This document shows positions 4,959-53,706 of a stretch of 64,000 bases of DNA, in pieces. The position numbers were made by a program, and so were the translations under genes. Below the pieces are notes generated by a model. The model was not told the origin of the DNA and ran no database searches. It worked only from the letters and a program-made list of their open reading frames with translations. The stretch's first letter is position 1, and the number at the start of each line of letters is the position of its first letter. The stretch lies in the IMG/VR virus record IMGVR_UViG_3300034062_003747, positions 13,826 to 77,825 of that record; one strand, given 5' to 3'. The stretch is from a virus.

Positions 4959-7900
4959 TTAATCAACCACTAAAATTGGTTCTCCACTTCCTCTACCTGT
5001 ATCTGAAACTTTTAGTATATTAGGGTTAGTTGTGAACGTTTGAACCGGTGCACCACCTAAAATATTAGTTGCAGCGGTTTGTTTGGACCCATTAAAATAA
5101 CTATTTTGTAATCCGGTTGATAAATCACCAGTATTTCTATAATGGGTTGAGAAATACCCATTTAAAGGAGTTACCTCTACGATATTTCCACCGACTGCAG
5201 GAGCAGTGATTTCAAACCCATCGGAACCAGTAAATGGTAGTATAGTAACTTTTGTTCTATAAAACGGAGTCGAAACTAATTGTGTTCCCATACTTTTATC
5301 TAACGCGTTTATGTTTTCAGGTATATTTTTTAAATAACTTTCTTTTATTAAAAATACTTTATTTCTTTCTTTTATAAAATTACCCCAAACATCTATATAT
5401 GTTCTAATTACATTTCCATCCGAACCAAACAACCCAAATCCGGCAACAGATAAAGAATTTTTATCTAATCCGATTTGAATAAATTCAGTTTGGTCGTATT
5501 CACCAGTTATCGAACCTGTTATTGTAGCATCAATATGTGCAAATATTCCACCCATTGTTTTGGTTGAATCGGTTGTAATTGTTCCAAACACGTTTGTAGT
5601 ACTAAATGTATCTACTTCTCCATTATAAGAATTATTTGTTGCAACTAAATTTAAATCCTCCTGTGTTTGTATTTCAACAGAATATTGTGGGGTTGTTACA
5701 TTTAAAGCAATTGCATTAGATGTGGAAATAAATGCATTTATATTTTGGTATGATGCAAATTGGTTTGTAGTTTCATTAGTATCAATAGTAACTTCATGTT
5801 GAGCATTTACTGCGGATGGCTTGTTCCATTTAACTTTACTTCTTTCTAAAATATGTGGTTCAATTAATAAACCAGATGAAACCTTTGCCCTTGCAGGAAC
5901 TAATGATTCTAATGTTTCAAAAAGTGATTTATCAATATATCTTACTAATTGAATATATTCGTGAGTATTTAAATTATATCGTTGAAAATAATAATTTCTT
6001 AAAGTAGCTAAATCTGAATATGAATCGCTATATTCATCTGCAGGATTACCAATATAATCATCTATATTAAATTCACCCAAAGAACGTAGAATATCCATAT
6101 TCACTTCTTTCATAGGTGAGAAAAATAATCCCAATCTATCCGTATCTATTGGTGCCTGGTCATATGATTTTTTAGTTGCTCTACTTTTATAGTTTAAATC
6201 TGATTCTAAAGTTTGTGTTTCAAAACGGAATTTATTTCCTACGGTCAATCCACTTGAAGGAACTTTTGCTGTTACAGTTCTTTCATATGGAATGTAATTA
6301 TATGGATAATCCGCTATTCCATCAGCTGGGTTTGATATATCAACTAATGGGAAATTATGAACACTTGCACTAGTTGCATAATTTTGTATAATTGCAACAT
6401 TATTAATACTACCTCCTACACTTAAATCTTTTGGATATTCAAAATCTAAACGGAATAATAAATCAACCGATGATGCAGAAATATGTGAACCATCAATTGC
6501 ATCTGGTAATAGAGTATGATTATCAATACGAGATTCTGGTAATGGTGTTCTCCATAAACGGAATTCATCTAATGAACCGGTTAATCCTTCACCAACGTAT
6601 AATATAGAACCACTTTTCCAAGTAGTTGAACCAATTGGTAATGGGTCTGAAATTTTGATTACTTCATTTCGGATTCTTCCTTGAAATCCTTCTTTTAAAT
6701 ATAATTCAAATACTTCAGTAGTAGAACCAGTTCTTCTATTTAAAACAATATTTGTATATGCATCATTGTAGAATGGCATATAATCAGTAGATACTGACGA
6801 GGCTGAATTGCTGCCTGTAATTTTAAATTCTAATTTAGCAAGAGAACCAGTGCCTGGTACTAAATCTAATACCCATTTATCAGTTCTTAATAAACGTTGA
6901 GTAACACTACTTTGTAAAGTATTAATACTAAATTCAATTGCATTAGGAAAATCAGTTCCATTAGTATCAGAATAATTTTTAAACGGAATTTGTAAGAATG
7001 AACCGGTTTCAAAGTGTAAAGCACAGGTTCTATCATCAAATGTAAATGTTGTAGTCGCATCAGATGATGGGTCTTGTGGTCCACCATATTCCATTATTGT
7101 TAACATGGATGTCGGGATACCATAACAAGCCATTGCTGCACTTAATGCCCTTTTTGTACCCTTATGTTTTAATAGGTATGGTAAGTTATTTAGTATTCGT
7201 CTCCATATTTGATGTTGACGAGATTTTCCACTCATTGATGATGAAGATGAACCATCTGAATTCTTACCGAATGCATATTCCCATAGGTATTGAGATTGAA
7301 CCCCCATATCGGCGTTCCAACCCAATGATTCTAGCATATGATATATTAAATCATTACCAATACCATCTTCGTATTTGTGTTCTAATTTTTTAGATTGTGC
7401 AATTCCTTTTGTATATGACCATAGGGTATCAAAGTGTTGACCCATCATATTCAAAAATAAAACAAACTCAGCATTTTCAGCATCGTTTGTAATATGTGCC
7501 GGAATATTATTTACTAATATATTTTTGTTATTGTAATCGTATTGTTGTGCATCATCTATGATTCCATTATACCAATCGGTAACTGAAGAATCCGTAGATT
7601 GACTTACAGAATTACCTCCGGCACCGGGATATGTTAATTCATATGAACCAGATGTTGTGTAGAGATATTTTTCAAATCCATCAAATCCGGCTTTAACTTT
7701 ATTTTTACTTTCAACGTGTTTTTGTAATTCTAATGATGATGTTACCGAACCAGATATATATGATAAACTACTTGATACAAAATTTATTTTAGTATCATAA
7801 AATTCAATTAATTCTACTTTATATAAAAAGTTTTTTACTCGTTCTTCTGCTGATGAGTATTTTACAAAATTAGACCACGCATAAGTTGAACCACTTTCAT

Positions 7901-10082
7901 ACTGAATGTTTAAATTCTCTAATGAAAATTCGCTTGAACTTACATATGAGTTAATTAAATCAGTTGATGTGTTAGACCCACTTGCTAATAAATCATCTAA
8001 TATTTGATACCCAATTTCATCACCAATTGTTACATTAAAATTTGGTTTTAATGGAGTACAATCACTTTTTAATTCATCAATAATAGTAACTTGTTCTATT
8101 ATAGGAATTGATTGAATTTTAGATATCCATAATTGTTGGTTAGGTTGTATTTCACGAGGAAGAGGTTCGTATAACTTTAAAACTAAAGATTTTTGTTCTT
8201 TAGATTTAGTACGAGTTCCTGTTTCTGCATCCGTTTTATATTCAGAAAAAGTTTCAGTATCAACTCCCCACGTCGCAATTAATTTATTATCACCATCACC
8301 TAAGTGTAGATAGTGAGTTAAAAATTTAGAAATTTCTTCCTCTAATATTTTTTCGTCTAAATTAATTTCAAACGCACTTCTAATATCTGCAATTACTTTA
8401 CCTCTTCGTAATTTTAAATCTCCCTTATCAAATAAAATAGAAATTCTTTCAATCTTACCTTCGGTTAATTCATCACCTTCTTGATTAAATGGAATTAATA
8501 AAATTTCAAATTGAACCTTATCAGTATCTTCATTAAATTGATTTTGTGCTTTCTTTAAAACATCCTCTACATTTAATGTAATTAATCCTGCAGGTGATAA
8601 TTTACCAATTGCATATTGTTTATCATACTTTGAGACATACATCTCAATGTAGTTTGTATTAATTGATTGCCAACTAATATCAAACTCAACATTAAATCCT
8701 TTAAAATCCGCACCTTTAATATTCTGCGGATAATTAATATGGGTAATATCTGGTCCTGGTAGATAGTATTTGTTAACTACATTAATTGTAATCTTTGTAG
8801 TCTGACCACTACCTGCTCTATCCGAACGAGGTTGTAGATAAACTACATAGTTACCAACCCCATTATAAAAATCGTTTTTAGATAAAACAAGTGAACCATT
8901 TGGGGATAGTGTACGCTGAGTAGACCCTAATGAATAGATAATCTCCGATGCATTAACACTATTATATGGTATGTTTAAATTATTATTACCTGCTATATTA
9001 AATTCAAACGATATACCCTCAGTTCGTAATGTAGGTGCATCTGCTTGGGGTATATTATCATTTGATTTTTTAGATACTGAAATATTAACTATTGCATCAT
9101 CAATTCCTGGTTCTAATTTAAAATCTAATCTATCATACTTAACACTATTTCCTTTTGTAATTACTTCATATACAACCGAATGTGTTTGTGTAGATAATCC
9201 ATTTGAAATAAAATCAATACAGTAAGCACTATCTAAATTAGGTGAAAAATTAAATTCAGTTCTACCAGATATAACGTTTCCTGTCACACCATTTGATATA
9301 CGATATGATATTAAATCATTTTGATAAACATCACCATTTATTTGTATCCTTGCAAAAGCCTGAGGAAGTGGGTCAATTGGTACTGGAAATGTTTTTAAAT
9401 CAAATTTTAATGTCGTACTTAATACGGCATCAGTTTCAGTACTTTTTTCTAATATATTTTGTTGAATAAAATTACCACCAATTAATTTTTCAATTATCAA
9501 CTGATAATAGGTAAAATATACTACACTTTCATATACTTTTGGTCTTTCTACCCTTTTTCTAATTACTGCGTTTGGATTATTAGGGTCTTCTTCAAATGTA
9601 TAGCCAACCACATCATCAAATGGAATTTCTACAAGAGTTTGTTTTCTATTTTCTTTTTTTAGAGTATAAACCTTATAAACATCTGAAGATTCTACTCCTG
9701 ATTTTTGAAGTGTTATTTGTTTGGGAGTAAGTAATTCTTTTTGATTAAATCGTAATTCGGTAGGGGTTGATTTTACATTTTGAATTACACCATCTACCAA
9801 TACTATTCCATCTTGTGGATTAGATTGTATTCCAATTTGAATTTCTAAATTTTGTGTATTGTATACATCAGTTGGTGCATAGGTACATGAACCATCATTA
9901 TATGTAGCAGATGAATCATAATTATTGGCACGTGGGTCAGTACAACCAAATTTTGGTGAAGTTGGATTTCCACCACCTCCACTATTTGGTGCCGGTATAT
10001 TATTACTCCCACCGCCGCTAAATGAACCACCAGTATCTACATACACCGCGTTTCCGTCATTTATATTATACCCATTTGCCAT
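4959..10082 (-). CDS. Large virion structural protein (baseplate wedge-like, LamG-like segment)
   Basis: 1707 aa; LLKHKGTKRAL wedge-type motif; LTGSLDEFRLW LamG-like motif; N-terminal GCTD...DGSC repeat. Confidence 0.6.
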   Translation of the reverse strand: MANGYNINDGNAVYVDTGGSFSGGGSNNIPAPNSGGGGNPTSPKFGCTDPRANNYDSSATYNDGSCTYAPTDVYNTQNLEIQIGIQSNPQDGIVLVDGVIQNVKSTPTELRFNQKELLTPKQITLQKSGVESSDVYKVYTLKKENRKQTLVEIPFDDVVGYTFEEDPNNPNAVIRKRVERPKVYESVVYFTYYQLIIEKLIGGNFIQQNILEKSTETDAVLSTTLKFDLKTFPVPIDPLPQAFARIQINGDVYQNDLISYRISNGVTGNVISGRTEFNFSPNLDSAYCIDFISNGLSTQTHSVVYEVITKGNSVKYDRLDFKLEPGIDDAIVNISVSKKSNDNIPQADAPTLRTEGISFEFNIAGNNNLNIPYNSVNASEIIYSLGSTQRTLSPNGSLVLSKNDFYNGVGNYVVYLQPRSDRAGSGQTTKITINVVNKYYLPGPDITHINYPQNIKGADFKGFNVEFDISWQSINTNYIEMYVSKYDKQYAIGKLSPAGLITLNVEDVLKKAQNQFNEDTDKVQFEILLIPFNQEGDELTEGKIERISILFDKGDLKLRRGKVIADIRSAFEINLDEKILEEEISKFLTHYLHLGDGDNKLIATWGVDTETFSEYKTDAETGTRTKSKEQKSLVLKLYEPLPREIQPNQQLWISKIQSIPIIEQVTIIDELKSDCTPLKPNFNVTIGDEIGYQILDDLLASGSNTSTDLINSYVSSSEFSLENLNIQYESGSTYAWSNFVKYSSAEERVKNFLYKVELIEFYDTKINFVSSSLSYISGSVTSSLELQKHVESKNKVKAGFDGFEKYLYTTSGSYELTYPGAGGNSVSQSTDSSVTDWYNGIIDDAQQYDYNNKNILVNNIPAHITNDAENAEFVLFLNMMGQHFDTLWSYTKGIAQSKKLEHKYEDGIGNDLIYHMLESLGWNADMGVQSQYLWEYAFGKNSDGSSSSSMSGKSRQHQIWRRILNNLPYLLKHKGTKRALSAAMACYGIPTSMLTIMEYGGPQDPSSDATTTFTFDDRTCALHFETGSFLQIPFKNYSDTNGTDFPNAIEFSINTLQSSVTQRLLRTDKWVLDLVPGTGSLAKLEFKITGSNSASSVSTDYMPFYNDAYTNIVLNRRTGSTTEVFELYLKEGFQGRIRNEVIKISDPLPIGSTTWKSGSILYVGEGLTGSLDEFRLWRTPLPESRIDNHTLLPDAIDGSHISASSVDLLFRLDFEYPKDLSVGGSINNVAIIQNYATSASVHNFPLVDISNPADGIADYPYNYIPYERTVTAKVPSSGLTVGNKFRFETQTLESDLNYKSRATKKSYDQAPIDTDRLGLFFSPMKEVNMDILRSLGEFNIDDYIGNPADEYSDSYSDLATLRNYYFQRYNLNTHEYIQLVRYIDKSLFETLESLVPARAKVSSGLLIEPHILERSKVKWNKPSAVNAQHEVTIDTNETTNQFASYQNINAFISTSNAIALNVTTPQYSVEIQTQEDLNLVATNNSYNGEVDTFSTTNVFGTITTDSTKTMGGIFAHIDATITGSITGEYDQTEFIQIGLDKNSLSVAGFGLFGSDGNVIRTYIDVWGNFIKERNKVFLIKESYLKNIPENINALDKSMGTQLVSTPFYRTKVTILPFTGSDGFEITAPAVGGNIVEVTPLNGYFSTHYRNTGDLSTGLQNSYFNGSKQTAATNILGGAPVQTFTTNPNILKVSDTGRGSGEPILVVD
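9879..9947 (-). repeat. GCxD-x2-A-x-NY...DGSC-x-Y protein repeat (copy 3)
   Basis: GCTDPRANNYDSSATYNDGSCTY. Confidence 0.8.
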
Positions 10083-41250: not shown

Positions 41251-42507
41251 TTACATTATATTTTGTTTAATTGTGTTATTTTTTTTCAAATCATTATTTA
41301 AAATCAAATCCAATAATGAATTTTCATTGTTCATTCTAAACATAAATTTAGTATGTACCACATCAGACCATTCTTTACATAATATATAATTTTCATCAAA
41401 GTTTTCCATAAATTCTTTTACGAATTTTGAAAATAATTTACCATCAACTTTATAATTTTTAGATTCTTTATAAAACGGATGTGGTGGAACATCAAATATT
41501 TTTTCAACCATTTCAATTGGGTATTCGTGTGTTGATATAAATGGTATCCCAGCTAATAATAATCCAATTGTTTTCTCCGAAAGGTACTGTGATGTAAATT
41601 TTTGTGTACTCCATGACCAACTCTCACATAGTATTTGCATTTTGGCTTTTGTTAAAACTCTAAAGAATATATCACCACATCCTTTTAAATTTTCAATATA
41701 ACTTATATCATCAAAATCAGTATTACCAAGTATTGAATTATTTTTAATATCATTTGAAACCAATGACCCATTTTTTTTATAATATTTATTATGATTTAAC
41801 GCATCACATGTTTTTAAATAAATTTTATTGTTATTTAAATTTTTTAATTCATTTAAAATACTAACTCTGTTTGATTTATGATTTCTTACACTATACATTA
41901 AATCATAATCAAAATTTAATTTATCATAGACCTGTTTAAATTCATACCACCATCTAATATTTAAATTTTTGTTCCATTGAAAAATAGAATTTGTAAGTGC
42001 AAAGTGAACGTTTTGATATTTGGATTTTACATGATTATTTAGAAAAAAATTATCAGTTATAATATAATGTTGATTTAATTGTTCTAATAGTGATTCTATT
42101 TCATTTGCTTTTTCATCAAACGCAATTTCTTCATATTTTTGAAATATTTTTTCCGTTCTGAAATAAGTGATTAACCACTTTTGGTTCTTTGGACAATCTT
42201 TTAATAGGTTTATAAATATTTTTAATATTTGTTGATTTTCCCTATCCATATAACTTCTATCTGGTAAGATTGGGCCTATTTTTGAATCTGTACTTGAATT
42301 AAAATATGCACTGAAATAATCTAATATATGATATCCATCCTCTTCAAAACTAATTTCTTCTTTAAAGATAAATTCAATATCAGTATTTTTGTATTTACAA
42401 AACACACTACCTGTATTGTTTTCAATAAAATATTTTCTATCGGTTGTATTATTTCCTAAAGTATATAATAACGATTTATCAAACTGATGATGTATATATA
42501 TTTTCAT
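41251..42507 (-). CDS. Putative GT-B glycosyltransferase-like protein (SEKT motif), paralog of 49184..50446
   Basis: QILCES...YLSEKT.GLL.GIPFI; ends QNIM. Confidence 0.45.
   Translation of the reverse strand: MKIYIHHQFDKSLLYTLGNNTTDRKYFIENNTGSVFCKYKNTDIEFIFKEEISFEEDGYHILDYFSAYFNSSTDSKIGPILPDRSYMDRENQQILKIFINLLKDCPKNQKWLITYFRTEKIFQKYEEIAFDEKANEIESLLEQLNQHYIITDNFFLNNHVKSKYQNVHFALTNSIFQWNKNLNIRWWYEFKQVYDKLNFDYDLMYSVRNHKSNRVSILNELKNLNNNKIYLKTCDALNHNKYYKKNGSLVSNDIKNNSILGNTDFDDISYIENLKGCGDIFFRVLTKAKMQILCESWSWSTQKFTSQYLSEKTIGLLLAGIPFISTHEYPIEMVEKIFDVPPHPFYKESKNYKVDGKLFSKFVKEFMENFDENYILCKEWSDVVHTKFMFRMNNENSLLDLILNNDLKKNNTIKQNIM
41366..41426. repeat. Direct repeat, 59/61 identical to 49296-49356
   Basis: gaccattctttacataa..tataattttcatcaaagttttccataaattcttttacgaatt in both paralogs. 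Confidence 0.85.
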
Positions 42508-42516
42508 AACTTTAGT

Positions 42517-42987
42517 TTATAAAAGTGTTATGCATTTTGCACCAAATGAATATACAAGTTTAATCGCCGCTATATTCCATTCAAATATTTCCATTCTAAT
42601 TTCTCTAAATTTTTTAAAAATAATTTTAGTTGTATTGCTATAAAACCAGTTCGAAGATTCATTTGGTCTTTCTATTACATTTGTAATGTATAAATTATAA
42701 GTAAAGCAACTGTCATTATTTATTTTTTTAAACCACCTATAACCAACCGGTTGTTCTTTATAATAAAATATAAACACATAATGACCATCATTAATTCTAG
42801 TATACACGTCAGTTATATTAAACATTCCGTCCCATTTATATTCTATATTAAAATAGTCAATCAATGTTTTCATTGAGTTTATATTTTTTTCTAACGTATC
42901 TAAATCCTCCACCAAAACATAACTTAAATCTTCATGTTCGGTTGTATATTCTATAAAAGTTTCTTTTGTTAGTTTAAAGGTTTTCAT
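42517..42987 (-). CDS. GNAT-like acetyltransferase
   Basis: PVGYRW, YNLYI, WNIAAIKL..SFG; ends ITLL. Confidence 0.55.
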   Translation of the reverse strand: MKTFKLTKETFIEYTTEHEDLSYVLVEDLDTLEKNINSMKTLIDYFNIEYKWDGMFNITDVYTRINDGHYVFIFYYKEQPVGYRWFKKINNDSCFTYNLYITNVIERPNESSNWFYSNTTKIIFKKFREIRMEIFEWNIAAIKLVYSFGAKCITLL

Positions 42988-43586
42988 AATATTGTTTGGT
43001 ATTTTTTATTAACAAATAAAATATTTAAATCTTTCCAATTTATTTTTTTATTAATCTCCTCTTTATTAATTACTATAAAGTTATTTTTTTCTAAATATTC
43101 AATAAGATAGGTGTGCCTATTTTCAGTATTATATAAATTTTCATTTCTACTCCCTTCAACTTGTCCTCTTTTTATTAAAGATATTTTTTCATTTAGGGAT
43201 TTAAGAATATCCAAATCACTACCTTGAGCATCACAATGAAAGTAATCAATTGAATCTATATTATTTTCATCTATAAATGTATCTAATCTTATAACTTCTA
43301 CATCCACTTCCATTTCATATTCGGTGATTTTATTTTCAATACTATAATTGGATAGTTCATTTATTGAAGATGACATTTTATTTTTTCCAATATAAAATTT
43401 TGAAATTCCATTTATCATTCCCACCGCTTTATTTATTATTTTAATATTTTTTTTATTAAAAAATCTTAATTTTAATTTTTCCGCGTGATAGTTGTCCGGT
43501 TCAAAACAATAAACAAACGAATCATCTTTGAGATATTTTTCAGTATCTTCACCATCAAATCCACCTATTTCTATAATTGTTTTCAT
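42984..43586 (-). CDS. FkbM-family methyltransferase
   Basis: IEIGGFDG, FEP, RLDTF, HCDAQGSD; ends QTIL. Confidence 0.85.
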   Translation of the reverse strand: MKTIIEIGGFDGEDTEKYLKDDSFVYCFEPDNYHAEKLKLRFFNKKNIKIINKAVGMINGISKFYIGKNKMSSSINELSNYSIENKITEYEMEVDVEVIRLDTFIDENNIDSIDYFHCDAQGSDLDILKSLNEKISLIKRGQVEGSRNENLYNTENRHTYLIEYLEKNNFIVINKEEINKKINWKDLNILFVNKKYQTIL

Positions 43587-43587
43587 T

Positions 43588-44181
43588 TTAAATTAGTTTA
43601 GTAATGACATTATTTGAAGGATAAATAAAAATACAACCTCTTTTTTTAACTCCATTCATATATGATTCTTTACTAACATATTTTTCGTAACTATTTTTTC
43701 CATAAATCAACTCAACGTTAGATTTAATATGTTTCCAATTCAATTCTATGTTATTTCCGTTTTCATCAATATAACGTTCATAATCCCAATTCTCGTGGCC
43801 ACAATCAAAATCATGTATAATAATAATTGGTTTATAATTAAAATTTGAAATTATTTTCAATTCATCATTTATCGGCCAAGTACCCCAATGAGCATCTAAA
43901 AATATAAAAAATTTATCATGCCCTATTTCTATAAAAAATTTCTCTAAACATTCGGGTGAATTTCCTTTTAATATTTTAATATTCGGATTATTATTAAATC
44001 TATAATATAAAGGGAAATATTTACTATCTAATTCACAGCTATAAACTTTATCAAAAATGTGTTGTAAAATATCGACAGATTCTCCTTTGTTTGTACCCGT
44101 TTCTATTATAATGTTATAATCAAATTTTTGTTTTAATTTCATTATATCAATTATTAACATGCTATCTTGCTTAAACCCCAT
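43588..44181 (-). CDS. Class I SAM-dependent methyltransferase-like
   Basis: IIETGTNKG, SCEL, GNSP, FLDAH, IIIHD; ends TKLI. Confidence 0.72.
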   Translation of the reverse strand: MGFKQDSMLIIDIMKLKQKFDYNIIIETGTNKGESVDILQHIFDKVYSCELDSKYFPLYYRFNNNPNIKILKGNSPECLEKFFIEIGHDKFFIFLDAHWGTWPINDELKIISNFNYKPIIIIHDFDCGHENWDYERYIDENGNNIELNWKHIKSNVELIYGKNSYEKYVSKESYMNGVKKRGCIFIYPSNNVITKLI

Positions 44182-44217
44182 AGTAATATATTTTTTTATT
44201 TTCTATTAAGATGTTTA

Positions 44218-44973
44218 TCATAATAATCTTAAAGGTTTTTTTTTATACTTTGTTAGATTATAATTTATTGTTTCATACTCAACATCTTCAATTGTAATTT
44301 GAATTTTTGATTTACAATTTTGATTTAGATTATCGGTTTTTTTTAAAATAACATTTGCTAACATGGGTTGGACTCCGATTGAATAATGAACATCTTCATT
44401 GTTATGAAAATTATTTTTAATTAACCAATTAGCAAACCCATCTTCAAATTTAATATTTGTTCCATAATTTAATAGTGTATCCGTATAAGATGACTCCTCA
44501 ATGAAAATATAAAATATAGATATTTTTTTAGATATTAAATATTCAAATAACGGATTTATTAATTTAAATAATCTAAAATTATAATCTAATGAATTTTTTA
44601 AATAATAATCTACTAAAGATAAAACTCCTTCGTTTTCTTCTAACACTCTACTATATTTTTTTTTGTTAATAATTTCATTATCATATAGTTCATTAAATAA
44701 TACATTAGTAGATTCAATTGTATTAGTTACTTTATTTAAAAAACAACCTCTGGAAAGAAAAGAAAAATTAATGAGTATTATATCCCCCTCCCTATAATTT
44801 TGTAATTGTTCTAATATTTTTCTAAAAATAATTTCGTTTGATGCTCCTCCAACTGTGAATGCGGGAATATATTTATACTCTATACTATCCGCAATATGAT
44901 GACAAAAATGTTTATTATCACCATAATAATTTACTGTTCCATAACTATCACCAAAATGAAATAATTTTTTCAT
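44218..44973 (-). CDS. SGNH/GDSL-like protein
   Basis: FGDSYG, GASNE, DVHY; ends LRLL. Confidence 0.65.
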   Translation of the reverse strand: MKKLFHFGDSYGTVNYYGDNKHFCHHIADSIEYKYIPAFTVGGASNEIIFRKILEQLQNYREGDIILINFSFLSRGCFLNKVTNTIESTNVLFNELYDNEIINKKKYSRVLEENEGVLSLVDYYLKNSLDYNFRLFKLINPLFEYLISKKISIFYIFIEESSYTDTLLNYGTNIKFEDGFANWLIKNNFHNNEDVHYSIGVQPMLANVILKKTDNLNQNCKSKIQITIEDVEYETINYNLTKYKKKPLRLL

Positions 44974-44974
44974 A

Positions 44975-46138
44975 TTAAAAATTTGTGAATATTTGTATAT
45001 TTTGATAATCCGTTTTCAATTTTTTTAATTTATTAACTTCGTCTAAAAACATTACATGCTCAGGATGTTCTGAGTTTCTTACATTTTTTATTTTAAATTG
45101 TCCTTCTGTAAATGTTCCCCAGTTATTAATATGGATAAAGTTTACTTCCGTTTTCATACCATTTAGTTTTTGTAAGTAATCTGCCAATTCCACAAACCCA
45201 ATCATTTCCGTATAATTATTATTTTGAACTACGAATGTTAATCTTACAAAATCTAAATTTGGTATTTTAGTGAATATAAATTGTAAGTTTTTATAAAGAA
45301 TATCCCAATTACCACCTAATCTTATTTGTTCATAAGTTTCCTTTGTACATGCGTCTATACTAATTTCTGCCGTTATTCTTGGTATTGAATGTAGATTTTC
45401 TAATCTATCCCATATTTTTTCTGTCCATCCGTTTCCGTTTGTGTGTAAATGTAAATTTTTTGTATTTGGGTATTTTTCCATTGTAATGGATTTTAAAAGA
45501 TTACGCCAAAACTCACTCCCAAATCCATCGCCACTTGCGGTAATGTATAATTCGTGAGCATCATTCATTGCAAATTCTAAAATTTTATCCTGTATGGTTT
45601 CTGATTTTTCTCTTTCTTTGCCCGTAGTATTAATAAAATCGGTTCTACATGATGGGCATTTAAGGTTACAACTTCTATCATGTGAAAAAATAACACACTC
45701 GGGCCCCCATGGTAAATCTGATATTTTTTCTTCAATAATTTTTTTAAACTTCTCTTCTCCGTCTGGGTTAATGGTTTTATTGTTCCAAAGTTTATGAAAT
45801 GTTTTTTCGTCAAAAATTGGGAAATACCCATTATCATAAACACTTTCATCTATTTCTTCATTATTCCATTTTTGTAAAAATCCACATTCTTTTTCATCAC
45901 AATATTTCATACTACCATCGTGCATAGAATCTCTCAATTTGATTGCAACCTCACTATTCCAAATATTATTCCAATTATCTGTCAATGCATTACCAGCAGG
46001 TCCACACTTAACCCAAGCGTTTACCCATCGTTTTTCTTCCTCACTCCAAGCACCGGAACAACATTGCCAAACTAAACCATTTGACTGAAATTCGGCATTT
46101 CTGAATGGTGCTACACAAAATCCTTTTTTATTACTCAT
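44975..46138 (-). CDS. Radical SAM protein with N-terminal Twitch/SPASM-like domain
   Basis: N-terminal FCVAPF...QCC...C..C; core SCNLKCPSC, HTNG, SIDA, YEQIR.GG. Confidence 0.85.
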   Translation of the reverse strand: MSNKKGFCVAPFRNAEFQSNGLVWQCCSGAWSEEEKRWVNAWVKCGPAGNALTDNWNNIWNSEVAIKLRDSMHDGSMKYCDEKECGFLQKWNNEEIDESVYDNGYFPIFDEKTFHKLWNNKTINPDGEEKFKKIIEEKISDLPWGPECVIFSHDRSCNLKCPSCRTDFINTTGKEREKSETIQDKILEFAMNDAHELYITASGDGFGSEFWRNLLKSITMEKYPNTKNLHLHTNGNGWTEKIWDRLENLHSIPRITAEISIDACTKETYEQIRLGGNWDILYKNLQFIFTKIPNLDFVRLTFVVQNNNYTEMIGFVELADYLQKLNGMKTEVNFIHINNWGTFTEGQFKIKNVRNSEHPEHVMFLDEVNKLKKLKTDYQNIQIFTNF

Positions 46139-47361
46139 ATTAACGTTGTATTTTTTTTAGGAAAATTTCCATTATTGATTAATATGTAACTTTCAATTGG
46201 AAAATTTAATCTTGTTGATTTAGGTACATTTAACACTTTTTTTAATTGGGAATTATTTTTAATACATACTAAATTTTTATTTGATATTATCTTTTCTAAT
46301 TCATTTGGTAATTTTTTTTCTTTATATGTTTTCCAAAAAGTAGTATTGTTTTTTGAACAATTATAATGATGTCTAATTATAATCATATTTTGTCTTTGTA
46401 TATTATTTATACTTTCATTAAATTCATTTTCACTTAAAGTATTATTTAAATATTTTTTAAAAGTTTTTAATTGTACCACAATTGTCATAATTGAGGTTGC
46501 TTCCAATGGTTCTAAAAAACCAGAACTTAACCCTACAATTAAACAATTATTTATTAATGTTTTTTCATAAGTTCCTGGTTCAAAAGTAATTGTTTTATTA
46601 ATTTGTATATCATTTCCAAATTTGTTTATTATTTCCGTTTTTGCAATATCTTCTGAAATAAGTTTTTTGTCAAAAATATATCCACACCCCCATCTATTTT
46701 GTAATGGTATTTGCCAAACCCACCCATAATCCATTGCAATTGCATTTGTTCTTGTATTAACCGTAACATCATTCCTTTTTAAGAAAAAAGGTATTGCTGT
46801 ATTAACTATTAATTCATCAGCATAAGTTTTCCACTTTAATTTAAATAGTTTTGGGGTTAACCTATGAAATCCACTACAATCAAATACAAAATCCGTATCA
46901 TAATTGATATTATTTTCTAATTTAATACTATTAATATCACCTTTTTCATTTTGTTCAATATTTTTTATTTTCCCATCTATGTGTTCTACTCCTCTGATTA
47001 TCGCAATTTCTTTTAAATAATCTGCTAATAATCTTGCATCAAAATGATATGCATATACACTTTTATCTTCTTCCATTAAATCACCAAATCCATGAACATA
47101 TGAATAATCTATATCTGACCAGTTGTGGAAATGAATACCTATTTTTTTTGTTCCATTTACTTTTTTTAATAAATCGCTTTCATCAATTTCTAATTCCGAT
47201 AGGAAATTTACCAAATTTGGAGTACTCCCTTCACCGGCACCTAGTATACCAATTTCCGAACTTTCTATTAGTTTTACGTTTGAATTTTTGTAATATTTTT
47301 TTGCAAAAATTGCAGTTAACCATCCGGCTGTTCCTCCACCAATTATTATAATATTGTTCAT
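46135..47361 (-). CDS. Flavin-dependent halogenase (tryptophan halogenase family)
   Basis: GGGTAGW, GAGEGSTP, Lys in GTKKIGI, DCSGF, WVWQIP, GFLEPLEATSI; ends TTLI. Confidence 0.88.
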   Translation of the reverse strand: MNNIIIIGGGTAGWLTAIFAKKYYKNSNVKLIESSEIGILGAGEGSTPNLVNFLSELEIDESDLLKKVNGTKKIGIHFHNWSDIDYSYVHGFGDLMEEDKSVYAYHFDARLLADYLKEIAIIRGVEHIDGKIKNIEQNEKGDINSIKLENNINYDTDFVFDCSGFHRLTPKLFKLKWKTYADELIVNTAIPFFLKRNDVTVNTRTNAIAMDYGWVWQIPLQNRWGCGYIFDKKLISEDIAKTEIINKFGNDIQINKTITFEPGTYEKTLINNCLIVGLSSGFLEPLEATSIMTIVVQLKTFKKYLNNTLSENEFNESINNIQRQNMIIIRHHYNCSKNNTTFWKTYKEKKLPNELEKIISNKNLVCIKNNSQLKKVLNVPKSTRLNFPIESYILINNGNFPKKNTTLI

Positions 47362-47840
47362 ATCAACGTTGTTTTTTTAATTAAATCCTCATAGTTAACA
47401 AATAACAAAGCACTTTTTCTAATTCCTTTTGTTATTTTACTTATTTCATGTAATCTATCTGATTTAAAAAAATAAGGAATTCCTGGTGTTTTGTCAACAA
47501 TAGAATCGGGATTATATAAAATATATTCCCCTCCATCGTAATCATCATTTATATGAAATCCCACAACATACGCCCTATTTTTATAACCCCTTTCAACTGA
47601 ATCAATATGTTTACCAAAATAATCACCCACATTATATTTATGGAGTGTTAAATTATAATCGTAAGATTTTAGTTTTTCACCACTTTCAATTTCAAACCAA
47701 TTTAATAGTTTAGTGGTTATATTCATTTCATTATTTGTAAGAACCGCAAATTCGTAACTTCGGTTTTTTAATTTTCTAAAATCCGTATTATTCCAAAAAG
47801 ATTTTAAAAAATCTAATTCAATATCACTATATAACTTCAT
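47358..47840 (-). CDS. 2OG-Fe(II) oxygenase (prolyl-hydroxylase-like)
   Basis: KY..GD.F..HID, DYDGGE, HEI..ITKGIRKS; ends TTLI. Confidence 0.85.
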   Translation of the reverse strand: MKLYSDIELDFLKSFWNNTDFRKLKNRSYEFAVLTNNEMNITTKLLNWFEIESGEKLKSYDYNLTLHKYNVGDYFGKHIDSVERGYKNRAYVVGFHINDDYDGGEYILYNPDSIVDKTPGIPYFFKSDRLHEISKITKGIRKSALLFVNYEDLIKKTTLI

Positions 47841-47842
47841 TT

Positions 47843-48451
47843 TTAATATATATTTTTTTTAGAACCATAATCCTTAGTATAATCTAATATTGTAAATCCT
47901 CCTGCATAAACGATTCGTTCTATATCCGAACTACGATTTAATTCAGGTTTGTGTAATAAATTTGCTGGAAATAAAATTAAATCTCCTACTTGTGGTAAAT
48001 ACGATACTTCTATACCTTCATTTGTTCTAAATAATATTTTTCCTTCTTGCTCGTTTAAATTATCAGGCATTTGTGCATAATAAACAAATGACCAATCTAT
48101 ATCCGTTTTTAAAGTATCGCTAAAAGTATGTGTATGAAATCTTGTCCAGTTGTTATTTTTATTAGAGACATATATCCATTCGGTACTAAAATATAAATTT
48201 ATATCATTTGTATTATAATTTAAAAATTTAAAAATTTTTTTATATATTTTAGTATTTAAATTTTTAATTGCTTTTGTTTTTAAAATTATATATGATTGAA
48301 TACCATGTTCTTTAACAGATTCGACTGATGTTTTTTTATTTACTTTCATATTAAATTTTAAATCTTTTATTAATTCAAAATTATTAATAGTTGGTAAATT
48401 TGTAATATAAAAAGAAACCACATCAGTTATTTTTATTTCTTTAAATTTCAT
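47843..48451 (-). CDS. 2OG-Fe(II) oxygenase-like
   Basis: HTH, WSFVYY, GDLILFPANLLH, ERIV; ends KNIY. Confidence 0.75.
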   Translation of the reverse strand: MKFKEIKITDVVSFYITNLPTINNFELIKDLKFNMKVNKKTSVESVKEHGIQSYIILKTKAIKNLNTKIYKKIFKFLNYNTNDINLYFSTEWIYVSNKNNNWTRFHTHTFSDTLKTDIDWSFVYYAQMPDNLNEQEGKILFRTNEGIEVSYLPQVGDLILFPANLLHKPELNRSSDIERIVYAGGFTILDYTKDYGSKKNIY

Positions 48452-49183
48452 TTATATTAAATTTATTTTATGTTTTTTTTCTTGTTTTAATAAAAACTCA
48501 TTTAATTCTTCTGCTATTTTTGCATGGCCAGAAATAGAAAGGTGCGATGATTCTGTATTTAAAAATTTATATTTTGTTGACCACTTTAAAATAGAATATT
48601 CGTTTTCCAAATTAAAAAAATTTCTTTTTTTTAATTCTTCTAACTGATTATCATTGTTTATTTCTGGCCAATACATTAATAAAATTTTATTATTTTTTTT
48701 CTCCGCATGTGAAACCAACGTATCAATTTGATATAATAAATAATTAAAAGTTTCTTTTTCATTATAATGATGTTCAATATAAGATGAATACATTTTTAAC
48801 ATTTCATCAATCGTATCATTTTTGTTTATATTTTTATCGTACATTTCCGAAATTAATGGATTTTTAAAATCAACTTCAAAATTTACAAAATTTGATTTTT
48901 CATTATATGTAGGTATAACATTAAATGCGTTGGGTTGGTAATTTACCCATTTTTGAAAATATGAACTATATAAACCAAGTCTATGTAACCAAGTAATTTG
49001 TAATATTATAAACGAATTTTCTATATTGTGTTTTGTTATATAATCATATATTTTATAAATAATATGATTATTACTTAATCCCGGATGTGATAAATTACTA
49101 ACATCGTATCCCATCTCTTTTAATATAGCACCATATGACTTAGTACCACATGAATATGAACAACCGGAAATTAAAACTTTCAT
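48452..49183 (-). CDS. SGNH/GDSL-like protein
   Basis: SGCSYS, NLS.PG.SN, QIT...R, SHLS..GH; ends INLI. Confidence 0.68.
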   Translation of the reverse strand: MKVLISGCSYSCGTKSYGAILKEMGYDVSNLSHPGLSNNHIIYKIYDYITKHNIENSFIILQITWLHRLGLYSSYFQKWVNYQPNAFNVIPTYNEKSNFVNFEVDFKNPLISEMYDKNINKNDTIDEMLKMYSSYIEHHYNEKETFNYLLYQIDTLVSHAEKKNNKILLMYWPEINNDNQLEELKKRNFFNLENEYSILKWSTKYKFLNTESSHLSISGHAKIAEELNEFLLKQEKKHKINLI

Positions 49184-50446
49184 TTAAATTAGTTTTGATG
49201 TGGTGGTGGTGGAATATTTAAAGTCGTTAATCATCAAATCTAATAAAGAGTTTTCATTATAAAATTTATCCATAAAAGCTATATGACATATATCTGACCA
49301 TTCTTTACATAAAGTATAATTTTCATCAAAGTTTTCCATAAATTCTTTTACGAATTCTGCAATCTTAACCGCATCTCCTTTTATTTTTTTACTTTCATTA
49401 TAAAATGGGTGAGGTGGTATATCTAAAATTTTATTTAAAACTTCTAATGGGTAACTATGTGTTGATATAAATGGTATACCTGATAATACAAACCCTATGG
49501 TTTTTTCTGAAAGGTAATGTGATGCAAAATCTGAATCTGCCCACGACCAACTTTCATCTAATATTTGCATTTTTGAAATATTTAATACTCTATAAAATAA
49601 ATCTAAACCAAGTCTATTTTTATGTATTAAATGTAAATTATCAAAATCGTTATCACCTTCCATAGAATTTAGGTATATATCCGTTACTTTATTTTCATGT
49701 GTTAAATTTAGTTCACTATTTTTACGAGCATCTGACCTTTGTAAAAAAATCCTATTATTATTAAGTTTTTTTAATTCATTTAATAAAAGTATTCTATTGT
49801 ATTTATATGACCTAATTGAAAAACACAAATCATAATCAAAATTTAATTTATCATATATTTTTTTAAATTCATAATACCATCTTATTTCTGCATGAAAATT
49901 CCAATACCACATTGAATTTGAAAAAGTATAATAAAAATTAGAGTATTTTAATCTTATTTCATCTTTTATAAAAACTTCTTCTAATACTATTTTATGATTT
50001 TTTAATTTTAAAAAAGAATTTTCTATATCGTATAATAAATCCATATTTTTCTTATAAAATACATTTTCATATTTAAATAAAGTCTTTTCACCATTGAAAA
50101 ACATTATTATCCAATTCGTTTTACCTTCTAATAAATTACATAAATTATCAACGGGATTATTGACTATATTATCTATTGAGACATCTTTTTTATATAACGC
50201 TTGTGTAATGTTTTCAAATTTTATATCTTTAGTATTTTGTGATATTATTGTATTTAAATCTAATAAATGATATCCATCAGTTTCATCAGACATTTCTATT
50301 TTAAAAATAAATTCGATTTCCGTACCTTTATATTTACATTTTACACTACCCGCTTGGTTTGTAATATTAAATTCTTTATCTGTTGTATTATGGGCAAGTT
50401 TATAAAAGGTATCTTCTGAGTAATAATGGTGGATATATATTTTCAT
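49184..50446 (-). CDS. Putative GT-B glycosyltransferase-like protein (SEKT motif), paralog of 41251..42507
   Basis: MKIYIHH start, QILDES...YLSEKT...GIPFISTH; ends SKLI. Confidence 0.45.
   Translation of the reverse strand: MKIYIHHYYSEDTFYKLAHNTTDKEFNITNQAGSVKCKYKGTEIEFIFKIEMSDETDGYHLLDLNTIISQNTKDIKFENITQALYKKDVSIDNIVNNPVDNLCNLLEGKTNWIIMFFNGEKTLFKYENVFYKKNMDLLYDIENSFLKLKNHKIVLEEVFIKDEIRLKYSNFYYTFSNSMWYWNFHAEIRWYYEFKKIYDKLNFDYDLCFSIRSYKYNRILLLNELKKLNNNRIFLQRSDARKNSELNLTHENKVTDIYLNSMEGDNDFDNLHLIHKNRLGLDLFYRVLNISKMQILDESWSWADSDFASHYLSEKTIGFVLSGIPFISTHSYPLEVLNKILDIPPHPFYNESKKIKGDAVKIAEFVKEFMENFDENYTLCKEWSDICHIAFMDKFYNENSLLDLMINDFKYSTTTTSKLI
49296..49356. repeat. Direct repeat, 59/61 identical to 41366-41426
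   Basis: Direct comparison of the two segments. Confidence 0.85.
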
Positions 50447-51061
50447 TTATAGAATTTTTTTAGTTCCATTAATTCTATACTTTTTGTCAATATTCATATG
50501 TTTTCCCATAACTATTTCATCGTATGTTATATTAAAATATTTACAAAACTTCATCATATTTTCGTTTTGGTTTTCAATATATAAATCTTCATAATAGAAT
50601 ATTGGAATAGTATATGTTTCAGAAATATAAGTAAACGTGTTTTTTTCGTTTTCTAATAAACTTTTATATTTGTTTATCGAATTAGTATCTATCTGTTGGT
50701 AAACATATTTTGAATTCCAATTATCAGATTTTCTTGCATTGGCTAAACTTTCAGTTTGAGAATCAATATCTCTTCGTATTAGAATACCAATAATATCAAA
50801 TTTTGATTTTAAAAGTGTAATTAGTTCATCGGTGTTTAGATGTTGTAATTCAATAGGAAAGGAATCATTTCCGATTTTATTTTCTACAAAAATATTTGGA
50901 TTAGATATTATTTTTTTAAACTGATATTCTATACCAGTATCTCTGATTGCAGTAGTATTAAACGGTTCTCTATATACTATGGTATCTAAATTAGATTCTC
51001 TTACATAACGGGTTAAGTTTAAACTACCTGTTCTACCCTGTGATAATAATAACCTTTTCAT
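50447..51061 (-). CDS. Sulfotransferase-like (Stf0-type) protein
   Basis: SQGRTGS, EPFN, LIRRD...Q.ES, YYEDL; ends KKIL. Confidence 0.65.
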   Translation of the reverse strand: MKRLLLSQGRTGSLNLTRYVRESNLDTIVYREPFNTTAIRDTGIEYQFKKIISNPNIFVENKIGNDSFPIELQHLNTDELITLLKSKFDIIGILIRRDIDSQTESLANARKSDNWNSKYVYQQIDTNSINKYKSLLENEKNTFTYISETYTIPIFYYEDLYIENQNENMMKFCKYFNITYDEIVMGKHMNIDKKYRINGTKKIL

Positions 51062-51633
51062 TATATTAATTTTTTATCTACATTAAATTGTCTTAATTTA
51101 TTTTTTGTATTTAAAATATCATAATCCAATTTGATTTCTTTATTTTTTAACCCATCACCATAATATATAGATTCATATGTATCCAATGGTATATTAAATT
51201 TTTCGGATAATTTTCTTAAATATGTATTCTCTATGGTAAGTTGATTCATTATTGGATTGACATCCACATCTAAATTGTATACATATTTTACATCAAATTT
51301 ATTTCCGTTATGTAGATTAATAAATGATTCGGCATGTTCTTTTACATTTTCTCTACTTAATAAAATGGTAGTATCGAATTTTGGAATTAATTCGGAGTAA
51401 AAATCATAACACTTTTCAAAATAAGATATTGGAAGACTTTCGAACTTTGGTGATGTATTATCTATTTGGTGTAATATTGTTTTTACAACAACATTTTCTT
51501 TATTGTATTTTTTTCGTTCTAATCCCCAAGATGCATATGGTTCAAATATTATTTTTAAATTATAACTATTTGCTATTGATTTTTGCAAAGATGTCGAACC
51601 ACATCTAGCACTAGATATAATTAAAAAATTCAT
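51061..51633 (-). CDS. Sulfotransferase-like (Stf0-type) protein
   Basis: SSARCGSTSL, FEPY, VVK, LSREN...ES, TYESIY; ends KKLI. Confidence 0.65.
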   Translation of the reverse strand: MNFLIISSARCGSTSLQKSIANSYNLKIIFEPYASWGLERKKYNKENVVVKTILHQIDNTSPKFESLPISYFEKCYDFYSELIPKFDTTILLSRENVKEHAESFINLHNGNKFDVKYVYNLDVDVNPIMNQLTIENTYLRKLSEKFNIPLDTYESIYYGDGLKNKEIKLDYDILNTKNKLRQFNVDKKLI

Positions 51634-51653: not shown

Positions 51654-51797
51654 CTAACTATGTTTCGCTTTCAAAAATTGTACAAATTTTGCTAAAATTG
51701 TTTGTACATTTGCTTTCTGTGTTGTATTGGTTAAAACAATAGTTCTATTATGTACTGCGGTTGCTGGTGTTGATTTATATTTTGCTGGAGTTTCCAT
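51654..51797 (-). CDS. 47-aa peptide (not in ORF track)
   Basis: METPAKYKSTPATAVHNRTIVLTNTTQKANVQTILAKFVQFLKAKHS; fills the gap, ATG 7 nt after the upstream stop. Confidence 0.6.
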   Translation of the reverse strand: METPAKYKSTPATAVHNRTIVLTNTTQKANVQTILAKFVQFLKAKHS

Positions 51798-51804
51798 AGT
51801 TATA

Positions 51805-53631
51805 TTATTTATTGTGTACTAAAATATTATTAGCGTAAAAATTATGATGATTAGAAACACTTAATAAGTTATAAACCGTATGAGTTTCTTCTAATATTTC
51901 AACTGATACTATTTTTTTATCTTCCAATAAATCAGTTTTACAAATATCATTAGATTGTAATTCATTAGCCTTAACCCATCCTTTTTCTTTTACAAAAAAT
52001 GGATGCTCGGTTGTAGTAATAATAGTTTTTTCACCATCAAAAGTTAATTTGATTACGGATGAAACTTCGTGTTTTTTCAAATCACCAACTACTCCTGTTT
52101 CGTTAAATCCTGTTTCTTCATTATAGGTAAGAACATTTTCACCAACTATAACATCTTCAATATTTTTTAAAGAATTATCACTAAGTGTAATTTGAGTTCC
52201 TGCTGGAAAGCACCAGTTGTGGGTAATAATAAATGAAGTGTTTATAATATTATCAGTTCCTGCTATTAAATATGTATCGACATCTTCAACGTCAATTTCA
52301 ACTATTTTATGAGTATCCTCATTTAAAACGTAAAGATTATTTTCATCTATTGTTACATTATTTCCTGCGTTATCTACTAACAAATCCGTTGCTGGGTCAA
52401 TCTTTAATGCCTTTTTAAATACTATTGAGTTGGTATCTGTTTGATATACTAAAAATGTATTTGATACTGAGGCGTAAATTGTGTCACCCCCTATTTTTAA
52501 CTCATTTATAATATTGTTTTCAATACTTGCAGAAAATATGTTTTCAACAAAAGATGAAGTAGTATATGAACCAGTAGGAAGTGTACTTCCCTCATTTTCC
52601 CAACTAAATACTTCATCAACGTTATCACGCATTGGTGAACCACTTATAAAGTATGATTTAACCCTGTCACCAACAATCAAATTTTGCATTTGAGTTAATG
52701 AATCATCTTCCATTACTATTTCATGTGTACCTAATAAACCACCCTTTGTTCTTTGAGGTTGTTTTGTAAAATTGGTAGCAAATTCATAATAATGTTTTGG
52801 AGACAATAAGTTATTGATAATGGTGTTATCAATTTCTGTCGATAGATTGGTTGGTAAATCAAATATTGATTCAATTTGGTAATCTAATAATGGAATAATA
52901 TCTAAGTTTGCTCCGTAAATAATATTAAAGCTTCTTATTGATGTAATTTTATTATTTGAACTTACACTACTTGGATTGAAGTGATATTGTTGAATCATAT
53001 CTCCCTCTGCAGCTTGATTTACAATAAATTCATTAATTCTTACATCAGCTGATAATTCAGATTTTCCAACTTTATAAAATGCTCCTTGTTGTTTTTGTTC
53101 TATTTTTTTCTTTACCACAAAATCAGGAATACTATTATTGTCGTTTATAGTTCCGTCTAATGTATTGTAAGTCCCATCAATTAAAGATGAGTGGTAAAAA
53201 TTACATACTGAACCGGTTTCATCATTATCAGCAAATAATTTTAAAAGCTCTAACTTACCCTTTGCATATTCAGAATCTACAACTGCAGTTTCATCATATG
53301 CTAATCTTAATATAAATTTACTTTCACTATCTTCTGGAGTTGTTGGGAATATACTAGTTAATTCTGTTATAGTTTTAGTAAAGGTAGTAATATATGGAGC
53401 ACTTTCACTTAAAGATTGTGATAAGTGATTTACAAAATTACTATGTAATTCATCCTTATATACAACCGATACCTCAGTTATATTATTACTATTTAATATA
53501 CCAAAAAAGTTTGTAAAATCAATCAATGGTAGTGCGTTATTTAAAAACGCTGTATCTGTGTTAATTTCTAATAATCTTTCATTTCCATTATTATCAATAA
53601 CAAAATCGGATGAGAATAGTATTCCTTTCAT
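51805..53631 (-). CDS. Circularly permuted ATP-grasp-like ligase fused to two tandem Hint domains
   Basis: N-terminal SDFVID..G..RLLEINTDT, later FVVKK and MIQQY; Hint1 about aa 298-472 ending ITHN; W473; Hint2 CFPAGT...TTEHPF...VYNL...FYANNILVHN-K. Confidence 0.7.
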   Translation of the reverse strand: MKGILFSSDFVIDNNGNERLLEINTDTAFLNNALPLIDFTNFFGILNSNNITEVSVVYKDELHSNFVNHLSQSLSESAPYITTFTKTITELTSIFPTTPEDSESKFILRLAYDETAVVDSEYAKGKLELLKLFADNDETGSVCNFYHSSLIDGTYNTLDGTINDNNSIPDFVVKKKIEQKQQGAFYKVGKSELSADVRINEFIVNQAAEGDMIQQYHFNPSSVSSNNKITSIRSFNIIYGANLDIIPLLDYQIESIFDLPTNLSTEIDNTIINNLLSPKHYYEFATNFTKQPQRTKGGLLGTHEIVMEDDSLTQMQNLIVGDRVKSYFISGSPMRDNVDEVFSWENEGSTLPTGSYTTSSFVENIFSASIENNIINELKIGGDTIYASVSNTFLVYQTDTNSIVFKKALKIDPATDLLVDNAGNNVTIDENNLYVLNEDTHKIVEIDVEDVDTYLIAGTDNIINTSFIITHNWCFPAGTQITLSDNSLKNIEDVIVGENVLTYNEETGFNETGVVGDLKKHEVSSVIKLTFDGEKTIITTTEHPFFVKEKGWVKANELQSNDICKTDLLEDKKIVSVEILEETHTVYNLLSVSNHHNFYANNILVHNK

Positions 53632-53674: not shown

Positions 53675-53706
53675 AAAAAAAAGGGTCACCAAAGATGATG
53701 ACCCTT
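53675..53706 (-). terminator. Intrinsic terminator after hsp20
   Basis: AAGGGTCA/TGACCCTT stem plus T-run. Confidence 0.75.

Follow-up and report, generated by a model that had tools for sequence, protein, structure and literature searches.

This locus raises the question of what a phage protein might do in which an enzyme-like domain is followed by two Hint domains with a single tryptophan between them. The gene, which we call AGH, lies in a stretch of 64,000 nucleotides (hereafter the window; positions 13,826 to 77,825 of the IMG/VR virus record IMGVR_UViG_3300034062_003747). The record as a whole is 77.8 kb long, with an estimated completeness of 44%, and the genes of the window include those for a T4-like baseplate, a helicase and an endolysin. 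The initial annotation took the tryptophan, W473, to be purpose-encoded, released as an activated amino acid and linked to a halogenase gene nearby. We arrive at another answer, toward which we lean, if only modestly: the variable C-terminal tail of AGH processes itself in the manner of bacterial intein-like (BIL) domains. The chemistry is deduced throughout from folds, conserved motifs, domain architecture, gene neighborhood and the predicted binding of a small partner protein, p47.

Domain architecture of AGH

The open reading frame (ORF) is divided as follows, with the evidence in brackets.

51805..53631, minus strand: the AGH ORF, 608 amino acids (aa), comprising the ATP-grasp-like domain, degenerate Hint1, W473, Hint2, K608 and the stop codon (translation)
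52762..53631, minus strand: aa 1-290, putative circularly permuted ATP-grasp-like ligase domain (AlphaFold2 model, Foldseek, VIA-align)
52216..52740, minus strand: aa 298-472, Hint1, a degenerate Hint fold (hhalign, AlphaFold2 model, Foldseek, family profile)
52213..52215, minus strand: codon of W473, the one-residue spacer between the terminal Asn of Hint1 and Cys1 of Hint2 (translation)
51811..52212, minus strand: aa 474-607, Hint2, a complete type-A BIL-like Hint domain of the 'T' subtype (profiles, 2lwy match)
51805..51810, minus strand: codon of K608 and stop codon; this Lys stands at +1 of Hint2 and is the C-terminal residue seen family-wide (translation, 120 relatives)

The tandem anatomy described in the initial annotation is borne out: two Hint folds surround W473, the junction reads T-H-N-W-C-F in translation, and the protein ends in V-H-N-K-stop. 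The second Hint domain is complete, with Lys at +1, as had been claimed. It matches the profiles PT-HINT (E 4e-13), Intein_splicing (3e-11) and intein_Nterm (TIGR01445, 2e-5), as well as Pfam AXH (E 2e-7). Its best solved match, aligned end to end, is the BIL domain of C. thermocellum (2lwy, E 2e-10), and the second best in sequence is BIL2 of Tetrahymena (E 6e-8). Hint2 carries C474 as Cys1, T540-x-x-H543, H596-N597 and the terminal H606-N607; it is about 135 aa long, and it has neither an endonuclease domain nor a Cys, Ser or Thr at the +1 position, which K608 occupies. Judged by its sequence, Hint2 has every feature by which a type-A BIL domain is recognized.

Other classes of Hint proteins were compared as well. 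A canonical class 1 intein needs Cys, Ser or Thr at +1; the residue found is Lys after Hint2 and Trp after Hint1, in agreement with the earlier statement that neither domain is a canonical intein, and in place of a conserved host insertion site there is a hypervariable C-terminal tail with one residue downstream. The Hedgehog type (Hog) is likewise a poor match, since the His-Asn is invariant, Lys alone follows Hint2 and there is no adduct-recognition region. The same holds for the PT-HINT domains of polymorphic toxins, as Lys608 is the sole residue C-terminal of Hint2 and there is no toxin domain.

Hint1 has no match among the Pfam and NCBIfam profiles. When the middle domain of the family was aligned by hhalign with the true Hints of the same family, the probability was 93% (E 3e-7, Hint columns 5-134). 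In this alignment the His-Asn of Hint1 falls on that of the Hints, Gly298 takes the position of Cys1, and block B is without its His. The family profile of Hint1, compared with the PDB, retrieved BIL2 (3e-5), 2lwy (1e-4) and the KlbA intein (1e-3). Whether aa 298-472 would model as a Hint fold at all was a point on which the initial annotation depended, and here the outcome was favorable. The AlphaFold2 model of aa 291-473, with a predicted local distance difference test score (pLDDT) of 84, gave BIL2 as its best Foldseek match (E 5e-9) and the C. thermocellum BIL domain 2lwy at a template modeling (TM) score of 0.84 by target, and it also matched many inteins and the Hedgehog Hint 1at0. Gly298 is at least 90% conserved at position 1, and 28 sequences, with identities as low as 20%, all have D452, H471 and N472. 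The His-Asn and D452, the latter placed in block F on the basis of the family alignment, are the only Hint motif residues retained. Hint1 has thus lost Cys1 and the block-B His, on which the N-terminal chemistry depends, and has kept the residues of the C-terminal chemistry, which upholds the earlier description of a first Hint with Gly at the Cys1 position and an intact terminal His-Asn.

The N-terminal part, aa 1-297, has no Pfam or NCBIfam match either. The AlphaFold2 model of aa 1-290 (pLDDT 91) had YgiC, glutathionylspermidine synthetase (GspS) and eukaryotic glutathione synthetase as its top Foldseek matches (E 5e-6). By VIA-align, 10 of the 11 best matches were ligases of the glutathione-synthetase, GspS (including YgiC) or Cp1B type, with Z scores of 9.7-7.4, and next came LysX/ArgX, RimK, Ddl and TTLL at Z 5-6, over residues ~50-290 only. 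Six basic residues (K59, R109, K124, K174, K187 and R233) are invariant, as is E22-x-N24 at the extreme N-terminus, of which E22 and N24 are kept down to 20% identity. ATP-grasp enzymes carry a metal-binding E-x-N in a stretch near the C-terminus. In a search of the PDB, residues 8-33 hit this near-C-terminal stretch of D-Ala-D-Ala ligase and of 2-oxoglutarate carboxylase, at E values of 2-3 that are not significant. The position of E22-x-N24 fits a circular permutation as in eukaryotic glutathione synthetase. We call aa 1-290 ATP-grasp-like with moderate confidence, and this predicted fold, whose best matches are ligases of the glutathione-synthetase type, agrees with the N-terminal ligase proposed at the outset.

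The variable tail and its Hint domains

The body of AGH, that is, the ATP-grasp domain together with Hint1, is conserved across the family, and the region after the His-Asn of Hint1 is hypervariable. This tail may consist of 1-10 aa, of a Cys-rich stretch of 23-65 aa, of a Cys-rich stretch plus one Hint, or of one to three, rarely four, true Hints; one member ends in HN-K right after Hint1. Nearly every variant, Hint-less tails included, ends in Lys or in Lys plus 1-3 residues. Among 120 relatives, 93 end in HNK and 26 in HNK plus one residue, and the residue that follows an internal Hint is mostly Arg, while that after the last Hint is always Lys.

The true Hints of these tails keep Cys1, the block-B His and the terminal His-Asn without exception (226 of 226) and the block-B Thr in all but one (225 of 226). 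They fall into old subtypes that occur in preferred orders, for example D-T and D-L-T, the query carrying the T type alone. Relatives of the query differ in how body and Hint compare: P0010 has a body 93% identical to that of the query and a Hint, of another subtype, that is 36% identical, and the corresponding values for P0009 are 84% and 98%. The Hints thus seem, in these sequences, to behave as cassettes that are exchanged independently of the body. Recent selfish duplication was considered as a source of the tandem Hints and rejected, given that copies within one protein have a median identity of only 37%.

The Cys-rich tails are also rich in aromatic residues and Gly and share about six conserved Cys in the pattern C-x2-C...C-G-x-[YW]-x-C-x3-C-x2-C; no Pfam match was found for three proteins that carry them. 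They occur in the following proteins.

Cys-rich tail directly after the His-Asn of Hint1: P0222, P0227, P0228, P0232, P0238, P0242, P0244, P0256, P0260; L074:4655-6133
Cys-rich tail plus a Hint before the final Lys: P0226, P0229, P0231, P0236, P0243

These tails look like peptides that can be released or cyclized, or like modules that bear zinc or disulfides, and the forms with a Hint would, after its excision, resemble the Hint-less tails.

A conserved predicted partner of 47 residues

Directly after AGH lies a second conserved gene.

51654..51797, minus strand: p47, a conserved ORF of 47 aa, beginning 7 nucleotides past the AGH stop codon

Iterated hidden Markov model (HMM) searches placed p47 homologs directly downstream of AGH in 72 loci, including loci with Hint-less forms of AGH. 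There is no Pfam match for p47; its alignment has near-invariant Y7, K8 and F38 and a C-terminus of the form K-H-[SLTM]. The complex prediction of p47 with full-length AGH passed, with an ipSAE interface score of 0.87 against 0.21 for the best control, and the mark applied is one that 58 of 80 solved complexes and 2 of 110 mismatched pairs reach. Three runs agreed in at least 95% of contacts, with a pLDDT of at least 89 for the partner. In the predicted complex, the C-terminal helix of p47 packs on residues 10-20 and 129-142 of the ATP-grasp domain, and p47 residues 6-10, including Y7-K8, pair with the Hint1 strand 432-437 and touch residue 279. The interface also takes in residues 300-304, beside the position equivalent to Cys1, and no contact between p47 and Hint2 was reported in the prediction. 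Binding of p47 to the ATP-grasp and Hint1 domains is thus predicted and supported, not proven.

Proposed self-processing of the tail and its alternatives

Type-A BIL domains form an N-terminal thioester, cleave by Asn cyclization and can possibly ligate their flanks through the freed amine, with cleavage products dominating (PMC4031507). We suggest that the tail of AGH might be processed along these lines. The body, made up of a permuted ATP-grasp-like ligase and a degenerate Hint, would hold the partner of ~47 aa. The Asn of Hint1 would mark the boundary to a hypervariable tail that nearly always ends in Lys, into which exchangeable Hint cassettes resembling type-A BIL domains would have been inserted, one to three and rarely four in number, in the present case a single one flanked by W473 and K608. 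Hint2 would undergo an N-S acyl shift at the W473-C474 bond together with cyclization of Asn607, and might thereby excise itself, either by plain cleavage or with W473 rejoined to K608; Asn472 of Hint1 may also sever the tail. The mature product would then be the ATP-grasp-Hint1 body bound to p47, and W473 would be a chance occupant of the junction and no dedicated substrate of a halogenase.

Several points weigh against this proposal. Cleavage and splicing are read here wholly from conserved motifs and folds. No sequence profile backs the ATP-grasp assignment, which depends on a predicted model whose scores are moderate (Z below 10, TM 0.4-0.5), and the complex prediction was run on our own alignments, so that it is calibrated only approximately. 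Plain self-excision does not account for the strict Lys that follows the last Hint or for the residue between Hints, mostly Arg, and both hint at a further role. It is also hard to explain by removal of the tail alone why members whose tail is a single Lys keep the His-Asn of Hint1. Finally, purely selfish elements would not be expected to form such old and regularly ordered Hint subtypes.

In place of excision, the W473-C474 thioester might be attacked by an outside nucleophile, rather than by water or K608, in the manner of Hedgehog proteins, as the initial annotation suggested in the alternative, or of BUBL proteins, the best candidate being the near-invariant Lys8 of p47. Such an acyl transfer would leave the ATP-grasp-Hint1 body covalently attached to p47 or, if Asn472 were to cyclize too, only the spacer residue or residues on Lys8. 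A precedent is BIL2, which makes isopeptide bonds with Lys, transferring its N-terminal neighbor to a lysine, and serves as a dispensing platform (PMC8616854). This BUBL domain ranks second among the solved sequence matches of Hint2 and first among the fold matches of Hint1, and the idea gains further from the recurrence of p47 beside AGH and from the predicted docking of its Y7-K8 on Hint1, with contacts close to the Cys1 equivalent. However, the docked p47 makes no reported contact with Hint2, the domain that would hold the thioester; p47 is found also beside forms without true Hints (L058, L068), where a Cys1 that could form the thioester is lacking; and in some members the His-Asn of Hint1 abuts Cys1, so that there would be no spacer to hand over. 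We regard acyl transfer to Lys8 of p47 or to another amine as unlikely.

It is conceivable, too, that the Hint domains are inert and act as structural or binding modules, for example as a scaffold that returns the end of the chain to the ATP-grasp domain and docks p47, in which case AGH would be an intact ligase of 608 aa. Non-catalytic modules of the Hint fold are known, the AXH profile matches Hint2, and the clearly degenerate Hint1 offers, by prediction, a docking surface to p47. Yet the catalytic positions of the true Hints are conserved almost without exception across subtypes that are only ~37% identical, and H471-N472 of Hint1 is invariant even where overall identity falls to 20%. Such a pattern is to be expected of chemistry rather than of packing, and inert Hint domains appear quite improbable to us.

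A bolder variant, to which we give little credence, is a natural 'twin-Hint' delivery platform. Cleavage at the Asn of Hint1, combined with the thioester at Cys1 of the next Hint, would free the unit between them with a free amine and an activated carboxyl, to be passed to Lys8 of p47 or cyclized, and to be tailored by the enzymes of the neighboring cassette. The unit would be Trp in the present protein, an X-Pro dipeptide in most relatives and a Cys-rich peptide of 23-65 aa elsewhere. Cyclization would give a diketopiperazine from X-Pro and a head-to-tail ring from the Cys-rich peptides, and tailoring would fall to the neighboring oxygenases, sulfotransferases, radical S-adenosylmethionine (SAM) enzyme and halogenase. 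If true, activated acyl units would be supplied by a ribosomal route, independently of tRNA and of non-ribosomal synthetases, and there is a small chance that AGH represents a categorically new mechanism of peptide or aminoacyl delivery.

The tryptophan spacer and the halogenase gene

The weakest of the alternatives is the one first proposed for this locus, in which C-terminal cleavage by Hint1 and the N-S shift of Hint2 would free W473 as a Trp thioester with a free amine, which would feed the halogenase-family enzyme and other tailoring enzymes. The conserved residues make both half-reactions chemically plausible, and the tryptophan-halogenase-family gene is indeed found where it had been reported, downstream of AGH and on the same strand (46135-47361, E 1.5e-91). 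The spacers of more than 200 homologs and the enzyme content of related loci do not sustain the link.

Between Hint1 and Cys1, 120 relatives have the spacers AP (50), SP (15), NP (15), W (13) and Y (5), eight have none, and rarer forms make up the rest; wider sampling added IPPK, LGT, PIRGVS, PFGAGRGG and linkers of 6-12 or more aa. All members of the query's own clade have W or W plus one residue as their spacer, a form confined to that clade, and as far as these alignments go, the W spacer is a feature of a lineage and not one conserved across the family. No halogenase homolog was detected in 77 related viral loci, in which small 2-oxoglutarate (2OG)-Fe(II) oxygenases (57), sulfotransferase-like proteins (32) and radical-SAM/SPASM proteins (29) were recorded. 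L085, a near relative with 65% identity, has the W spacer, and its cassette, which is visible from the gene to an FkbM methyltransferase, contains neither a halogenase nor a radical-SAM gene. In L087, by comparison, the Hint protein is only 60% identical and has the spacer WQ, and both a halogenase and a radical-SAM gene are present, which share 87% and 91% identity with those of the window. The two genes are adjacent in the window (44975-47361, minus strand) and have their L087 counterpart at 7526-9909. Such a pattern points to a recent exchange of the pair between phages, and the two genes would seem to behave as a separately exchanged module. Arrays of halogenase, dioxygenase and sulfotransferase genes have already been described from cyanophages such as Syn9 (Iyer et al. 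2010; PMC2938197).

Trp as a conserved cargo was rejected on account of the variable spacer and of L085, which has W without a halogenase. Although a W-type spacer runs through the query's clade and a halogenase accompanies it both here and in L087, a free Trp thioester is very improbable in our judgment, since the spacer is missing or unrelated in most of the family, the halogenase is absent from the 77 loci and from L085, halogenase/dioxygenase arrays occur in cyanophages such as Syn9 and the AGH body in no cultured-phage record, and a lone aminoacyl thioester beside the amine of Cys474 should, on chemical reasoning, revert or hydrolyze.

Comparison with known systems

Self-processing of the tail would liken AGH most directly to proteins with type-A BIL domains (Amitai 2003; Dassa 2004; 2lwy). 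Hint2 shares with these domains Cys1, TxxH, the C-terminal His-Asn, the absence of Cys, Ser or Thr at +1 and of an endonuclease, and it too sits in a hypervariable region of its protein. In contrast to them, it closes the protein but for one Lys, its 'C-extein', it is fused to an ATP-grasp-like enzyme and preceded by a Hint without Cys1, it is found in phages only, and in relatives as many as three or four distinct subtypes follow one another in ordered tandem, with one Arg or Lys between them. BIL2 of Tetrahymena BUBL (6tmm, 6y75), a Hint that hands its N-terminal neighbor to a lysine amine independently of ATP, is close to Hint2 in sequence and to Hint1 in fold, but the ubiquitin-like flanks of BIL2 are absent from AGH, and a lysine acceptor in AGH, be it K608 or Lys8 of p47, is hypothetical.

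Among ligases, the group of GspS, YgiC and eukaryotic glutathione synthetase provides the best fold matches of aa 1-290, and its permuted layout fits; the AGH domain differs in being much smaller, with no pre-ATP-grasp or amidase domain and no sequence-profile match. Engineered twin-intein constructs for peptide cyclization place a target between a C-cleaving intein and an N-thioester intein. The order of parts in AGH, a Hint fit for C-terminal cleavage only, an insert and a thioester-capable Hint, would be analogous; these constructs are man-made, however, and the insert in AGH is one residue, a Cys-rich peptide of 23-65 aa occurring only in relatives. Finally, the contents of the cassette downstream of AGH recall the 2OG-Fe(II) dioxygenase, halogenase and sulfotransferase arrays of cyanophages (PMC2938197), for which the passages concerned mention neither an ATP-grasp-Hint head gene nor a 47-aa partner.

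The components of AGH are thus of known kinds. What appears new, in that we found no description of it, is their combination: a Hint limited to C-terminal cleavage, ordered arrays of the BIL type, an ATP-grasp-like enzyme and a mini-protein, placed at the head of tailoring cassettes. The family comprises hundreds of sequence clusters, from large aquatic phages only, and it heads dioxygenase/sulfotransferase/halogenase cassettes that have long been puzzling, so that knowing what AGH releases or conjugates could explain the targets of these cassettes. Protein engineering could also gain new self-processing parts from the family, namely natural Hints that have Lys at +1 and a module, likewise natural, whose cleavage is confined to its C-terminus.

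Distribution of the family

A word-indexed search returned 587 AGH homologs at E<=1e-3, and a profile of aa 1-472, run against 1.84 billion proteins, gave 944 cluster representatives, with E<=1e-30 for 215. The Atlas clusters of the family are 97-100% viral, and the closest relatives come from the metagenome collection of the Joint Genome Institute (JGI); a single-protein scan of viral contigs returned no near relatives. A tblastn search of 50,697 phage records gave matches to the Hint domain only, in Vibrio and Ruminococcus phages, and no cultured-phage record among them covers the ATP-grasp or Hint1 region. In a scan of 185,579 species genomes, the full gene was present only on one 2.8-kb contig of an uncultured Cyanobium metagenome-assembled genome (L102, CAYNGR010000277.1), the sole full-length member in that set. 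This contig is probably phage DNA, and it hints at picocyanobacteria as hosts. The family looks phage-restricted, and it is apparently undescribed, as no account of it was found in the literature on tandem Hints, on phage ATP-grasp proteins with Hints or on cyanophage Hint domains.

Hints similar to Hint2 also occur outside the family. Unrelated phage proteins of ~990-2650 aa (L059-L064, L071, L073) contain in their C-terminal part a Hint that is 52-56% identical to Hint2 and ends in ...VHNK, followed by further sequence. One Hint subtype therefore appears to circulate among different phage host proteins. Within the family, a divergent clade (L072, L075-L078) has an N-terminal domain with ~20% identity and the same E-x-N-T start, a Hint1 that ends in LVHN, an IPPK spacer, two or three Hints and the terminus THNSP in place of HNK; no p47 homolog was detected downstream in these loci.

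Gene neighborhood

AGH is separated from the gene before it by the following feature.

53681..53706, minus strand: terminator-like hairpin that follows hsp20 and shortly precedes the AGH start

Given this hairpin, AGH would head a transcription unit of its own. The cassette downstream contains 2OG oxygenases, the halogenase, sulfotransferase-like genes, the radical-SAM/SPASM gene and methyltransferases. In translation, most of the unrelated enzymes of the region 42984-51633 (minus strand) have a similar end, ...[KT]-[LI]-[LI]-stop (for example KLI, TLI, NLI or KIL). Two ORFs on the minus strand, at 49184-50446 (420 aa) and 41251-42507 (418 aa), are apparent paralogs; neither has a Pfam match, and they match one shared region of the cassettes of relatives, at ~65% and ~47% identity, respectively.

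On the same strand, the phage ORFs 55234-55830 and 56428-57681 begin with a lipoprotein-like signal sequence that ends in Cys, and the second of them has FG-GAP repeats in addition; ORFs with such signals are unusual cargo in a T4-like phage.

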